IMG/VR virus record: IMGVR_UViG_2700989170_000003
DNA: 5,587 nt
From: a virus
Taxonomy: Duplodnaviria; Heunggongvirae; Uroviricota; Caudoviricetes
Reading direction: 5' to 3' (one strand)
This document shows positions 1 through 5,587 of this stretch, in pieces (within the stretch, counting starts at the first letter, position 1; each line of letters begins with the position of its first letter). A program made the position numbers and the translations under genes. The notes beneath the pieces are model-generated. The model did no database searches. It was given only the letters and a program-made list of their open reading frames with translations, and was not told where the DNA came from.

Positions 1-203
1 CTTCTGATGCCATTCTATTTCAGGAAGGAGTGTCCGTTAAACTCAGGCTACCTCAGTCAGCGCTGGAACGACGAGAAGCCAGAAACCATTCAACCACAAT
101 CCAGACCATCATCCGCAATCACCGTATCGAAAACTGGCTATGTGTTTTTCGACAGGTGAACCATGAAATCAAAAATCAAATCGCTACTGGTCGCTGGTTA
201 TAA
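1..203 (+). CDS. Possible 3' end of an upstream gene running off the left edge; frame unresolved
   Basis: Two + frames are open from the window edge: frame 3 to a TAA at 201-203 and frame 1 to a TGA at 157-159. No motif or homolog recognised, so this is weak ORF-only evidence. Confidence 0.25.
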   Translation, partial: SDAILFQEGVSVKLRLPQSALERREARNHSTTIQTIIRNHRIENWLCVFRQVNHEIKNQIATGRWL

Positions 204-266
204 CCACGGCTGGTTAAGTATTTCGTTTGTCGATTTCTGGTTTAAAAATCTCAATCTGAGGGAATC

Positions 267-2147
267 ATGAGGCCAAGTGAACTTAGCGACCTGCTTTGGG
301 CGCAGGTTGACAGGGTGGCTCCGCACCTGTTGCCAAACGGCAAGATAGAGGGGCATGAGTGGGTTGCCGGTAACGTCAACGGTGACAAGGGAAACAGCCT
401 TAAGGTCAACCTTATCGGCAAGAAAAAATGGGCTGATTTCGCTGAGGGAGACGGCGGTGACATGCTTGATTTGTGGATGGCATGTCGTGGAATTAACCTG
501 CATCAGGCTATGCAGGAAGCGAAAGCATTTCTCGGTATCAAGGATGACGATCACCATTTCGATGCCAGACGTGAGAAGAAATTCTCCAGACCTGATCGTA
601 AGAAAATCGCCCGCTACGTTACCAGAACAGAATCCCATCTTGAGTACCTGCAATCGCGTGGCATATCGCCAGAAGTCGTAAAGCGCTACGAGGTTGTCAG
701 CGGCAAGGTGTGGAATGGAGAACGAGAACTGGATGCTCTGGTGCTTCCGTACAAACGCGATGGTGAGTTGTTGCAGGTCAAGCGAATCAGCACTGAGCGC
801 CCGGACGGGAAGAAAGTCATTATGGCAGAAGGTGATTGCGAACCTTGCCTGTTCGGATGGCAGGCTCTGGACGCTGGCGTGAGGGTGGTTGTGCTTTGCG
901 AAGGCGAAATTGATTGTATGAGCTATGCGCAATACGGCATCTCGGCGTTATCCGTGCCGTTTGGTGGCGGGAAAGGCGCTAAGCAACAGTGGATTGAGTT
1001 TGAGTATCACAACCTCGACAGGTTTGAGGAAATATTCATCTCGATGGACGTTGATGATGTTGGTCGTGAAGCCGCAAGGGAAATCGTAAGCCGACTCGGT
1101 GAACATCGTTGCCGTCTTGTTACTCTGCCGTACAAAGACATCAACGAATGCCTGATGAACGGTGTTACCGAGGATGAAATCTGGCAGTACATCGGCACGG
1201 CATCCTACTTCGATCCTGAAGAACTCTACAGCGCGCGAGAGTTTTACCAGGACACTATCAACGCTTTCTACGGCAAGCAGCAGTATCTGTTTAATCCACC
1301 GTGGGAATCTCTCGCAGATAAATTCCAGTTCCGTGAGGCCGAGTTGACGCTGGTCAATGGTGTGAACGGTCACGGAAAAACGGAGGTTGTCGGGCATATG
1401 GCACTTGAGGCAATGCGTCAGGGTGTGAAGACGTGCATCGCGTCACTTGAGCTGAAGCCAGGCATTCTCCTTAAGCGACTTACCCGTCAGGCAACGTGCT
1501 GCAAGATGCCGCCAGTGCTGGAAATTGACTCTGCATTTAAATTTTATGACGAAAGACTTTGGGTGTTTGGCCTGACCGGAACGGCGAAAGCCGACAGGCT
1601 GATCGAAATATTCGACTACGCTCGCCGCCGATACGGCATCCAGTTATTCATCATCGACAGCCTGATGAAATGTGGCATAGGCGACGATGACTATAACGGG
1701 CAGAAGGCGTTTGTTGACTCGATTTGCGACTTCAAAAACAAAACAAACTCCCACGTCATTCTCGTTACTCACTCGCGAAAAGGAGACAGCGAAGAAAAAC
1801 CAACCGGGAAAATGGACGTAAAAGGCTCTGGAGCGATAACAGACCTGACAGACAACCTTTTCATCATCTGGCGTAACAAGGCTCGCGAGAGAGCGTTACA
1901 GAGAGTTCAGAGTGGTGAAAAGATGTCAGAGAAGGACGAACAGCTACTGGCATCTCCGGCATCTGTTTTGATGCTTGAAAAACAACGTAACGGTGAAGGT
2001 TGGGAAGGTGGTGTCCCGTTGTTCCTTGACGAGCAATCGCACCAGTTCCTGCAACTTGAATCAGGATCGCCATATAGCTACATCGCCAATATGCCGAAAT
2101 CGGAATATGACGAGGCGTGGCGACAGGAAAACGTGACAGAGTATTAA
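267..2147 (+). CDS. Bifunctional DNA primase-helicase, T7 gp4-like (TOPRIM primase domain plus RecA-fold/DnaB-like helicase domain)
   Basis: 626-aa ORF; ATG at 267 is the first in-frame start after a stop at 243-245, with GAGGG 4 nt upstream. TOPRIM motifs VVLCEGEID (about nt 883-909) and SMDVDD (about 1039-1056); Walker A GVNGHGKT (1359-1382); Walker B-like LFIIDSL; KGSGAITDLTDN helicase motif. By-eye colinear with T7 gp4. Confidence 0.85.
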   Translation: MRPSELSDLLWAQVDRVAPHLLPNGKIEGHEWVAGNVNGDKGNSLKVNLIGKKKWADFAEGDGGDMLDLWMACRGINLHQAMQEAKAFLGIKDDDHHFDARREKKFSRPDRKKIARYVTRTESHLEYLQSRGISPEVVKRYEVVSGKVWNGERELDALVLPYKRDGELLQVKRISTERPDGKKVIMAEGDCEPCLFGWQALDAGVRVVVLCEGEIDCMSYAQYGISALSVPFGGGKGAKQQWIEFEYHNLDRFEEIFISMDVDDVGREAAREIVSRLGEHRCRLVTLPYKDINECLMNGVTEDEIWQYIGTASYFDPEELYSAREFYQDTINAFYGKQQYLFNPPWESLADKFQFREAELTLVNGVNGHGKTEVVGHMALEAMRQGVKTCIASLELKPGILLKRLTRQATCCKMPPVLEIDSAFKFYDERLWVFGLTGTAKADRLIEIFDYARRRYGIQLFIIDSLMKCGIGDDDYNGQKAFVDSICDFKNKTNSHVILVTHSRKGDSEEKPTGKMDVKGSGAITDLTDNLFIIWRNKARERALQRVQSGEKMSEKDEQLLASPASVLMLEKQRNGEGWEGGVPLFLDEQSHQFLQLESGSPYSYIANMPKSEYDEAWRQENVTEY

Positions 2148-2176
2148 ATGACCATCTACATCACTGAGCTAATAAC

Positions 2177-2209
2177 AGGCCTGCTGGTAATCGCAGGCCT
2201 TTTTATTTG
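2177..2209 (+). terminator. Intrinsic terminator, lambda tR2-like
   Basis: Perfect 8-bp stem AGGCCTGC (2177-2184) / GCAGGCCT (2193-2200), 8-nt loop, then TTTTTATTT. Lies between the replication gene and ninB, where lambda has tR2. Confidence 0.7.
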
Positions 2210-2224
2210 GGGGAGAGGGAAGTC

Positions 2225-2665
2225 ATGAAAAAACTAACCTTTGAAATTCGATCTCCGGCACATCAGCAAAACGCTATTCACGCAGTACAGCAAATCCTTC
2301 CAGACCCAACCAAACCAATCGTAGTAACCATTCAGGAACGCAACCGCAGCTTAGACCAGAATCGAAAGCTTTGGGCTTGCCTTGGTGACGTCTCTCGTCA
2401 GGTTGAATGGCATGGGCGCTGGCTGGATGCAGAAAGCTGGAAGTGTGTGTTTACAGCAGCATTAAAGCAGCAGGACGTTGTTCCTAACCTTGCCGGGAAT
2501 GGCTTTGTGGTAATAGGCCAGTCAACCAGCAGGATGCGTGTAAGCGAATTTGCGGAGCTATTAGAGCTTATACAGGCATTCGGTACAGAGCGTGGCGTTA
2601 AGTGGTCAGACGAAGCGCGACTGGCTCTCGAATGGAAAGCGCGATGGGGAGACAGGGCGGCATGA
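2225..2665 (+). CDS. ninB: NinB (Orf-family recombination protein)
   Basis: 146-aa product [23 protein letters not shown]... matches lambda NinB as I remember it. GGGAGAGGGAAG Shine-Dalgarno precedes ATG 2225; the ORF-track start at 2207 is an upstream in-frame extension. Confidence 0.93.
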
Positions 2666-2844
2666 GACGACAGCGACGAAGTTTCACCGACATCATCTGC
2701 GAAAACTGCAAATACCTTCCAACGAAGCGCTCCAGAAATAAACGCAAGCCAATCCCAAAAGAATCTGACGTAAAAACCTTCAATTACACGGCTCACCTGT
2801 GGGATATCCGGTGGCTTAGAGAACGTGCGAGGAAAACAAGGTGA
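2662..2844 (+). CDS. ninE: NinE
   Basis: 60-aa product [23 protein letters not shown]... matches lambda NinE from memory. ATG 2662 overlaps the ninB stop (ATGA). Confidence 0.88.
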
Positions 2845-3011
2845 TTGACCCAAATCGAAGTTACGAACAAGAAAGCGTCGAGCGGGCTTTAACGTGCGCT
2901 AACTGCGGTCAGAAACTGCATGTGCTGGAAGTTCACGTGTGCTCCGATTGCTGCGCAGAACTGATGAGCGATCCGAATAGCTCAATGTACGAGGAAGAAG
3001 ACGATGAATGA
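2841..3011 (+). CDS. ninF: NinF-like small Cys-rich protein
   Basis: GTG start at 2841 overlaps the ninE stop (GTGA), with GAGGA about 7 nt upstream. 56-aa product [42 protein letters not shown]... resembles lambda NinF. Absent from the ORF track because of the GTG start and short length. Confidence 0.78.
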
Positions 3012-3726
3012 GTTAATAAATGGCAATGCCATCAAAATGACAAGCATTGAAATCGCTGAGTTGGTGGGTAAGCGTCATGACAATGTGAAACGTACCATCG
3101 AAACGCTGGCTAAAAATGGTGTTATCCGGCTTCCTCAAATTGAGGTTTCCGAAAGAATCAATAACTTAGGGTTCAATGTTCAGTACGAGCATTACGTCTT
3201 CGAGGGCGAACAAGGTAAGCGAGACAGTATTGTCGTTGTTGCCCAGTTGTCGCCAGAGTTCACCGCTCGCCTTGTTGACCGCTGGCGAGAGCTTGAAGAA
3301 GCTGCGGTTAATATCCCCAAAACGCTACCGGAAGCGTTGCGCCTTGCTGCCGATCTTGCTGAGCAGAAAATGCAACTGGAAAACCAGCTCGCAATTGTCG
3401 CACCTAAAGTTGAGTTTGCCGATCGCGTTGGCGAGGCCAGCGGAATTTTGATTGGAAACTTTGCAAAGGTTGTTGGTATTGGTCAAAACAAACTGTTTGC
3501 GTGGATGCGTGATCACAAAATCCTTATTGCTTCAGGTTCCCGGCGCAATGTGCCAATGCAGGAATATATGGATCGCGGCTATTTCACAGTGAAAGAAACA
3601 GCGGTCAACACAAATCACGGAATACAGATATCGTTCACCACAAAAATCACCGGGCGCGGTCAACAGTGGCTGACCAGAAAGTTGCTCGATAACGGAATGC
3701 TGAAAGTAACAGGGGAGGCTGCTTAA
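3004..3726 (+). CDS. Antirepressor-like protein: N-terminal Rha-family regulatory domain plus C-terminal KilAC (Ant C-terminal) domain
   Basis: 240-aa ORF. N-terminus TSIEIAELVGKRHDNVKRTIETL is the characteristic Rha/Bro-N-like signature; the C-terminal half (ALRLAADLAEQKMQLENQLA...KLFAWMRDHKILI...) is KilAC-like. ATG 3004 lies inside the ninF 3' end, with GAGGA about 10 nt upstream. Confidence 0.82.
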   Translation: MNELINGNAIKMTSIEIAELVGKRHDNVKRTIETLAKNGVIRLPQIEVSERINNLGFNVQYEHYVFEGEQGKRDSIVVVAQLSPEFTARLVDRWRELEEAAVNIPKTLPEALRLAADLAEQKMQLENQLAIVAPKVEFADRVGEASGILIGNFAKVVGIGQNKLFAWMRDHKILIASGSRRNVPMQEYMDRGYFTVKETAVNTNHGIQISFTTKITGRGQQWLTRKLLDNGMLKVTGEAA

Positions 3727-4059
3727 TGGCTAACCTACGCAAAGAAGCACGCGGCAGAGAATGCCAGGTACGTATTTACGGCGTATGCAATGGCNNNNNN
3801 NNNNNNNNNNNNNNNNNNNNNNNNNNNNNNNNNNNNNNNNNNNNNNNNNNNNNNNNNNNNNNNNNNNNNNNNNNNNNNNNNNNNNNNNNNNNNNNNNNNN
3901 NNNNNNNNNNNNNNNNNTGCATGGGCTTGTAGTGCGTGTCACGATGAAATCGACCGACGCACCCATAATCTCGACAACAAAGACGCCAGACTTTACCACC
4001 TCGAAGGCGTGATCAGAACGCAGGCGATACTGCTGAGGGAGGGGAAGATTAAGTCATGA
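3726..4059 (+). CDS. ybcO: YbcO-like (DUF1364) putative metal-binding nuclease; CDS interrupted by an N-run
   Basis: N-terminal MANLRKEARGRECQVRIYGVCNG and C-terminal ACSACHDEIDRRTH...EGKIKS both resemble DLP12 YbcO. The two parts are in different frames across the 123-N gap. Start overlaps the upstream stop (TAATG); stop overlaps the rusA start. Confidence 0.72.
3795..3917. other. Run of 123 N (assembly gap or masked bases) inside the ybcO-like gene
   Basis: Direct observation: n at every position 3795-3917. Confidence 0.99.
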
Positions 4060-4418
4060 ACGAATATCAGTTTGTGCTTCCATACCCGCCGTCGGTGAAT
4101 ACCTACTGGCGAAGACGGGGAAGCCAATATTACATAAGCGATAAAGGCCAGAAATACCGAAAAGACGTTCAGCAAATCATCCGCCAACTCAAGTTAGACA
4201 TTTTCACCAAATCACGACTCCGCATCAAAGTCATCGCAGACGTTCCAGACTCCCGCCGCCGCGACCTCGACAACATCCTGAAAGGTTTACTCGACTCCCT
4301 TATCCACGCCGGATTTGCGGAAGACGACGAGCAATTCGATGACATTCGCGTAATTCGTGGTGTGAAAGTACCAGGCGGACGGCTTGGAATAAAAATCACC
4401 GAACTGGAGAACGCATGA
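4056..4418 (+). CDS. rusA: RusA Holliday-junction resolvase
   Basis: 120-aa product; motifs PPSVNTYW, RRRDLDN and GGRLGIKITE are colinear with E. coli RusA. ATG 4056 overlaps the ybcO stop (ATGA), with GAGGGAGGGG upstream. Confidence 0.93.
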   Translation: MNEYQFVLPYPPSVNTYWRRRGSQYYISDKGQKYRKDVQQIIRQLKLDIFTKSRLRIKVIADVPDSRRRDLDNILKGLLDSLIHAGFAEDDEQFDDIRVIRGVKVPGGRLGIKITELENA

Positions 4419-4603
4419 ACGCCACAATTCAAACGATACCAGAGCTTCTTATCCAGACACGAGGCAATCAGACCGAAGTGGCAAGGATGCTTTCCTGCGC
4501 AAGAGGAACAGTGCTCAAGTACAACCGAGACAGCAAAGGCGAGCGTCACGTAATAGTTAACGGCGTCCTGATGGTCAAACAGGGCAAGAGGGGAAGACGA
4601 TGA
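4415..4603 (+). CDS. ninH: NinH (small HTH protein)
   Basis: 62-aa product; ...GNQTEVARMLSCARGTVLKYNRD...VIVNGVLMV matches lambda NinH from memory. ATG 4415 overlaps the rusA stop (ATGA), with GGAGA 4 nt upstream. Confidence 0.85.
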   Translation: MNATIQTIPELLIQTRGNQTEVARMLSCARGTVLKYNRDSKGERHVIVNGVLMVKQGKRGRR

Positions 4604-5223
4604 GACTAGAAAGCGTAGCTAAATTTCATTCGCCAAAAAGCCCGATGATGAGCTACTCACCACGGGCTACGGCTTCTGACTCTCTTTCCGGTACTGATGT
4701 GATGGCTGCTATGGGGATGGCGCAATCACAAGCCGGATTCGGCATGGCTGCATTCTGTGGTAAGCACGAACTCAGCCAGAACGACAAACAAAAGGCTATC
4801 AACTATCTGATGCAATTTGCACACAAAGTATCGGGGAAATACCGTGGTGTGGCAAAGCTCGAAGGAAATACTAAGGCAAAGGTACTGCAAGTGCTCGCAA
4901 CATTCGCTTATGCGGATTATTGCCGTAGTGCCGCGACGCCGGGCGCAAGATGCAGAGATTGCCACGGTACAGGCCGTGCGGTTGATATAGCCAAAACAGA
5001 GCAGTGGGGGAGAGTTGTTGAGAAAGAGTGCGGAAGATGCAAAGGTGTCGGCTATTCAAGAATGCCAGCAAGCGCTGCATATCGCGCTGTAACGATGCTA
5101 ATCCCAAACCTTACCCAACCCACCTGGTCACGCACTGTTAAGCCGCTGTATGACGCTCTGGTGGTGCAATGCCACAAAGAAGAGTCAATCGCAGACAACA
5201 TTTTGAATGCGGTCACACGTTAG
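4600..5223 (+). CDS. Q: Late-gene antiterminator Q (lambda-type)
   Basis: 207-aa product MRLESVAKFHSPKSPMMS...CRDCHGTGRAVD...CGRCKGVGYSR is near-identical to lambda Q as I recall it, including the zinc-finger Cys motifs. ATG 4600 overlaps the ninH stop (ATGA). Confidence 0.95.
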   Translation: MRLESVAKFHSPKSPMMSYSPRATASDSLSGTDVMAAMGMAQSQAGFGMAAFCGKHELSQNDKQKAINYLMQFAHKVSGKYRGVAKLEGNTKAKVLQVLATFAYADYCRSAATPGARCRDCHGTGRAVDIAKTEQWGRVVEKECGRCKGVGYSRMPASAAYRAVTMLIPNLTQPTWSRTVKPLYDALVVQCHKEESIADNILNAVTR

Positions 5224-5265
5224 CAGCATGATTGCCACGGATGGCAACATATTAACGGCATGATA

Positions 5266-5306
5266 TTGACTTTTTGAATAAAGTTGGGTAAATTTGACTC
5301 AACGAT
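5266..5306 (+). promoter_or_regulatory. Late promoter pR' with qut (Q-utilisation) site
   Basis: -35 TTGACT (5266-5271), 17-bp spacer, -10 TAAATT (5289-5294), then the pause-inducing AACGAT element (5301-5306). This matches the lambda pR'/qut arrangement immediately downstream of Q. Confidence 0.78.
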
Positions 5307-5327
5307 GGATAAATGCACTCGTTAAAT

Positions 5328-5365
5328 AAAGCCCTGAGTTAATAGCTCGGGGCTTTTTGCGTTTT
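5328..5365 (+). terminator. Intrinsic terminator about 30-60 nt downstream of the pR' start (tR'-like)
   Basis: 8-bp stem GCCCTGAG (5331-5338) / CTCGGGGC (5346-5353) with one G-U pair, 7-nt loop, then TTTTTGCGTTTT; an AAA tract sits upstream. Confidence 0.55.
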
Positions 5366-5501
5366 AAGCACGACCTTTCTGAAAGCGCATCAAACCAAAT
5401 ACCAGACAGACCAAAATAATCACCTTATCCGCTGTGGCTACGGTGCGGTGTGCTTTGCATAAAAGAAAACCAGCTCAATGGCTGGCTTCGTGAAAGCGGG
5501 T

Positions 5502-5537
5502 GGCAAGAGGTTGCGCTAACAACCTGATGCCGTTTTG
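5502..5537 (+). terminator. Terminator-like hairpin plus GTTTTG, homologous to a lambda hairpin upstream of the lysis genes
   Basis: Arms GGCAAGAGGTTG (5502-5513) and CAACCTGATGCC (5520-5531) give 4 bp, a 2x2 internal mismatch, then 6 bp; loop CGCTAA; followed by GTTTTGCCC. The sequence from about 5484 to the end matches my recollection of lambda just upstream of gene S. Confidence 0.35.
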
Positions 5538-5587
5538 CCCGTGCATATCGGTCACGAACAAATCTGATTACTAAACACAGTAGCCTG

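Follow-up and report, generated by a model that had tools for sequence, protein, structure and literature searches.

Proteins of the DUF1364/YbcO family have been classed in the treble-clef zinc-finger / His-Me-finger (HNH-like) nuclease superfamily; that they act as nucleases has been predicted from the fold, and genes for RusA, Q and antirepressors are their typical neighbours (PMC4999995, PMC5714182). A conserved histidine on the first beta-hairpin of these proteins has been predicted to be catalytic (PMC4999995). The family includes YbcO of the DLP12 prophage of E. coli K-12 (PDB 3G27; PF07102), whose gene has rusA directly downstream (neighbours in PMC5714182), as well as HkbD of the phages CUS-3 and HK620, gp66 of HK97 and the DUF1364 homologue of HK022.

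The DNA investigated here is a stretch of 5,587 nt, which is called the window in the following. It contains the lambdoid nin-region module roi - ybcO - rusA with its gene order and its overlapping stop and start codons. The ybcO-like gene is interrupted by a run of exactly 123 N (3795..3917), the sole non-ACGT stretch of the window as read from the sequence. The features around this run are:

3004..3726, plus strand: roi, encoding a phage antirepressor with KilAC/ANT domain, 240 aa (ORF list, Pfam, annotation in relatives as roi or KilAC antirepressor)
3714..3718, plus strand: GGAGG, a Shine-Dalgarno-like motif 7 nt 5' of the ybcO-like ATG (read from the sequence; putative function)
3726..3794, plus strand: N-terminal 23 codons of the YbcO/DUF1364 gene, MANLRKEARGRECQVRIYGVCNG, with Cys13 and Cys21 (identical to 4723..4791 of L006, a locus from a finished chromosome, see below)
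3795..3917, no strand: 123 N, very probably a scaffold gap; relatives have 80 nt here, which together with T3918 encode NPETTVLAHYRMAGICGTGMKPDDLIG (residues 24-50, including His32 and Cys39; from the spacing in relatives)
3918..4059, plus strand: C-terminal part of the YbcO/DUF1364 gene, with 3919..4059 forming 46 codons (AWACSACHDEIDRR...) and TGA (Pfam PF07102, alignment with relatives)
4056..4418, plus strand: rusA, encoding a Holliday-junction resolvase, 120 aa (Pfam PF05866 RusA, 62 bits; annotation in relatives)

The roi product was recognized by the Pfam families PF03374 (ANT, 113.5 bits) and PF09669 (Phage_pRha, 36.7 bits). The TAA stop codon of roi and the ATG of the ybcO-like gene have one base in common (TAATG, 3724..3728), and the ATG of rusA overlaps the ybcO-like stop codon (ATGA, 4056..4059). 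The gene lies between these two neighbours, in a lambdoid prophage's nin region, and overlaps both with its start and its stop. The order roi - ybcO - rusA was also found in 10/10 contigs that encode an identical Roi protein and in the phages CUS-3, HK97, HK022 and HK620.

In all ten contigs encoding the identical Roi, the gene between roi and rusA belongs to PF07102 and encodes 96 aa (10/10). One of them, L006, stems from a finished chromosome (CP034931.1), and its gene order is as in the window. Comparison of the two sequences revealed 100% identity over 3794 nt for window positions 1..3794 and a single difference in 1670 nt (99.94%) for positions 3918..5587, which is a synonymous change at 4223 in rusA. 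CP034931.1 has 80 nt between the two matching blocks and carries an intact 96-aa gene. When these 80 nt were inserted in place of the 123 N, a single ORF of 291 nt was obtained that is identical to the L006 gene. The reconstructed protein of 96 aa scores 149.4 bits against Pfam PF07102, covering profile positions 2-91 of 92, and the C-terminal fragment encoded by 3919..4059 alone scores 54.8 bits, above the cut-off (the curated gathering score of this family is 29.9 bits).

The reconstruction has the same length as YbcO of DLP12 (96 aa) and aligns with PDB 3G27 without gaps over residues 1-95 (E = 4.8e-40), residues 24-50 of the window being N with a length taken from the relatives. Cys13, Cys21, His32 and Cys54-x-x-Cys57 are located at the same positions in both proteins, and rusA follows directly downstream in both. 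The window allele is of the HK97/HK022/CUS-3 type, most of its differences from DLP12 YbcO being located in the C-terminal third, and 27/96 codons are hidden by the gap in the window. Compared with CUS-3, HK620, HK97 and HK022, the nucleotide identity over roi-ybcO-rusA is 96.5-99.1%; these phages share the overlapping starts and stops with the window and have 80 nt in place of the gap, and apart from a few synonymous changes and the assembly gap no difference from the window was detectable.

The product is predicted to be a small zinc-binding His-Me-finger (HNH-like) nuclease of the YbcO/DUF1364 family. Cys13, Cys21, Cys54 and Cys57 are readable in the flanks in the window and align with the cysteines of 3G27; from the fold classification in PMC4999995, we infer that they are the cysteines of the treble-clef zinc site. 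His32 and Cys39 lie under the N-run. According to our reading, His32 (in the motif LAHYR) is the conserved, predicted catalytic histidine of the family, and the translated 27 aa of 202/202 relatives with the 81-nt spacing described below contain it. That this conserved residue is hidden is the sole cost of the gap.

As written, the two halves of the ybcO-like gene are in different frames (3726 mod 3 = 0, 3919 mod 3 = 1). The left part (3726..3794) consists of 69 nt, the right part (3919..4059) of 141 nt with the TGA at 4057..4059; the frame ending at this TGA translates as AWACSACHDEIDRRTHNLDNKDARLYHLEGVIRTQAILLREGKIKS from 3919. The first base after the run, T3918, occupies the third position of the Gly50 codon, and 123 N together with T3918 make 124 nt, a length of the form 3n+1 that corresponds to the out-of-frame state. 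Since T3918 completes the Gly codon, the sequence that fills the N-run must have a length of 3n+2 nt (80 nt), or of 3n nt (81 nt) with T3918 included. An earlier sequence-only reading had described the frame mismatch between the N-terminal (3726..3794) and C-terminal (3919..4059) parts, with which our coordinates and the mod-3 check agree, and had expected ~80-85 nt in the gap, a range into which the 80 nt of the relatives fall. Its fill length of 3n+1 nt has to be corrected to 3n+2 for the N-run, given that T3918 belongs to the Gly codon.

Taken at face value, the N count would imply a short duplication or insertion of ~43 nt, or some other indel, and a frameshifted pseudogene, as would Ns that mask real sequence while preserving its length. 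The mismatched frames of the two halves are in line with this, and so is the number itself, which is somewhat informative since it differs from the conventional placeholder of 100 N. The spacing between the flanks in relatives argues against it. A megablast search of complete E. coli genomes and of phages with positions 3500..4300 (801 nt) as query yielded hundreds of matches with at least 80% query cover. Among the matches listed, the query (801 nt, or 798-799 nt) corresponded in 60/60 cases to a record stretch that is 43 nt shorter, that is 758 nt for the full query. Alignments with E. coli ATCC 11775 and phage CUS-3 showed that the whole 43-nt difference sits in the N-run; both have 80 nt at the gap, and their gene, annotated as DUF1364 or hkbD, encodes 96 aa. 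A length of 80 nt in place of the N-run was seen in 14/14 loci of the nearest relatives.

In addition, the exact flanks with a variable spacer were searched in metagenome_contigs (241 million records) and viral_contigs (2.9 million). With a spacer of 66-96 nt, 70 matches were found in metagenome_contigs and at least 120 in viral_contigs; with a spacer of 101-131 nt, a range that includes the 123 nt, there were 0 matches in metagenome_contigs and 0 in viral_contigs. In genome_contigs the exact left flank was matched in two organisms, and the 80-nt stretch is present in each: Shimwellia pseudoproteus and a Bacillota-labelled MAG. Altogether, 202/203 loci from three collections have exactly 81 nt between the flanks (80 nt and the base matching T3918; 27 codons).

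The 202 loci with this standard spacing contain 43 nucleotide versions of the 81 nt, and 190/202 encode the same 27 aa NPETTVLAHYRMAGICGTGMKPDDLIG. An intact 96-aa ORF is present in 195/196 complete related genes, the common polymorphisms of which (n=196) are nearly all located at third codon positions. The intact ORFs, the third-position variation and the shared residues therefore point to purifying selection and a fixed gene length. Complete E. coli genomes (rank-spread sample) gave single-piece matches across the gene, with a record span equal to the query span. The sole deviant, a human gut metagenome contig (L163), has 80 instead of 81 nt owing to a 1-nt deletion, and a substitution nearby. 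This deletion at the very place of the gap would be a precedent for a genuine indel; since the coverage of the contig is very low (1.25x), it is most likely a sequencing error.

According to INSDC rules a gap of unknown size is given as 100 N, and any other number stands for an estimate based on paired reads. Such paired-end gap estimates are commonly off by tens of nucleotides. An estimated-length scaffold gap in the INSDC/AGP sense is an uninterrupted run of N whose flanks are collinear with finished genomes, as is the case in the window: the flanks are contiguous in a finished genome, with a constant spacing other than that of the window (80 nt in L006 and all close relatives vs 123 N). The length of the run is neither 100 nor the true length, and its origin from paired reads would follow from the convention.

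We consider it highly probable (roughly 0.93), judging from the sequence comparisons, that the N-run is a scaffold gap, that 123 is an estimate 43 nt above the true 80 nt and that the gene is intact, encoding a YbcO/DUF1364 protein of 96 aa. The hidden sequence comprises almost certainly 80 nt, as in the relatives. A scaffolder would have joined two short-read contigs, leaving the N-run as the gap between them, and the length of 123 would be its estimate, which overshoots the 80 nt by 43 nt. The sequence-only reading had preferred a placeholder N count and an intact gene. Its view that the count is not the real length and that the gene is intact is borne out by the 81 nt in 202/203 loci, the 195/196 intact genes and the 80 nt of the finished chromosome CP034931.1; its notion of a pure placeholder does not hold up as well, because 123 is unequal to the 100-N convention and thus more likely the estimate of the scaffolder.

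A true length of 123 nt is very unlikely in the light of the same data, that is the exact 81-nt spacing, the 80 nt in the near-identical finished chromosome, the empty range of 101-131 nt in 241 million metagenome records and 2.9 million viral contigs, and the usual error of paired-end estimates. If the hidden stretch were truly ~123 nt long, the strain would have a specific insertion or duplication of ~43 nt that inactivates the DUF1364 gene, and the lost translational coupling might reduce expression of the downstream rusA; we give this outcome a very small chance. Deliberate length-preserving masking is likewise unlikely and would need a 123-nt sequence that is absent from all relatives. 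Hardly credible is a mis-join, in which the contigs to the left (ending at 3794) and to the right (starting at 3918) of the run would stem from two lambdoid prophages of one genome and no gene would span the gap: the ybcO-rusA region occurs up to four times per E. coli genome, nin regions are mosaic with many partial matches to the window and scaffolders are able to join across shared repeats, but both flanks are contiguous in the finished chromosome over the whole 5.5 kb, with 100% and 99.94% identity and the same gene order, and a chimera would hardly reproduce an existing arrangement so exactly.

We regard the N-run as an assembly artefact that covers part of a conserved and well-known prophage gene, without novel biology. 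Its importance lies in annotation only, since the gap would lead an automatic pipeline to label the ybcO-like gene as partial or as a pseudogene. The N count almost certainly departs from the real length, and a pseudogene annotation of this gene should therefore not be based on it; N counts in draft scaffolds are unfit for judging reading frames.

With a scaffold gap as the preferred reading, the position of the break may be explained by repeats. The roi-ybcO-rusA region is present in 1-4 copies per E. coli genome, and the N-run covers the best-conserved block of the ybcO-like gene. Among lambdoid prophages the central gene block hardly varies, and the region is often found in more than one copy per genome; a short-read assembler would probably collapse this block as a repeat and leave a gap, which we infer to be the likely cause. 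Two synonymous sites that are commonly polymorphic, 3797 (hidden) and 3918, lie at the ends of the N-run. T3918, the first base after the gap, varies more than any other site in the central part of the gene, and 71% of 196 relatives have another base there than the window; position 3797, which is the third base of codon 24 and lies 3 nt into the gap, differs from L006 as a proxy in 33% of 196 relatives. That the block between these polymorphic sites is the most conserved part of the gene suggests that the gap arose by collapse of a repeat; we conjecture that this repeat is the central block, common to two lambdoid prophages residing in the same genome, and that the assembler collapsed it.

The boundaries of exact-match blocks between L006 and 201 relatives were determined as well, with left extensions of 45, 30, 60, 21 nt and others, and right extensions of mostly 0. 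Several values of k for the k-mer size of the assembler are compatible with these boundaries. A decomposition of 123 into 80 + 43 as gap + k (k = 43) was rejected as numerology.

The window starts ~55 nt inside the end of the multicopy element IS600 (IS3 family), which is likewise found in L006 (1..~1055), and matches of E. coli prophages to the window begin at position 56. Such an IS600 end is a typical stop for a short-read scaffold. The element abuts the region 5' of a gene for a 626-aa toprim primase/helicase (267..2147). In two relatives (L009 and L014) a Phage_rep_O gene is located at the corresponding region upstream of the primase/helicase. Since IS600 borders on the region in which these relatives carry Phage_rep_O, the prophage is probably interrupted or truncated on this side.

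A search for structured RNAs and tRNAs across the whole window returned no Rfam family at the gathering score and no tRNA. A MAG contig labelled 'Bacillota bacterium' (L004, JAEZCC010000011.1, 3903 nt) carries an enterobacterial lambdoid nin region with ~92-97% identity to the window and is probably a mis-binned Enterobacteriaceae prophage contig.

Positions 2207..5223 of the window form a tight gene chain consisting of ninB, ninE, ninF, roi, ybcO, rusA, ninH and the gene for a 207-aa Q-like antiterminator (PF03589), in which almost all stops overlap the next start (for instance at 2841/2844, 3004/3011, 3726, 4056/4059, 4415/4418 and 4600/4603). Where the window has ybcO and rusA (3726..4418), many E. 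coli prophages (O157, O103, O145 and others) have ninG directly after roi. Because of this arrangement, the pair of predicted His-Me nuclease and RusA on the one hand and NinG on the other look like alternative modules for the same slot of the nin region.
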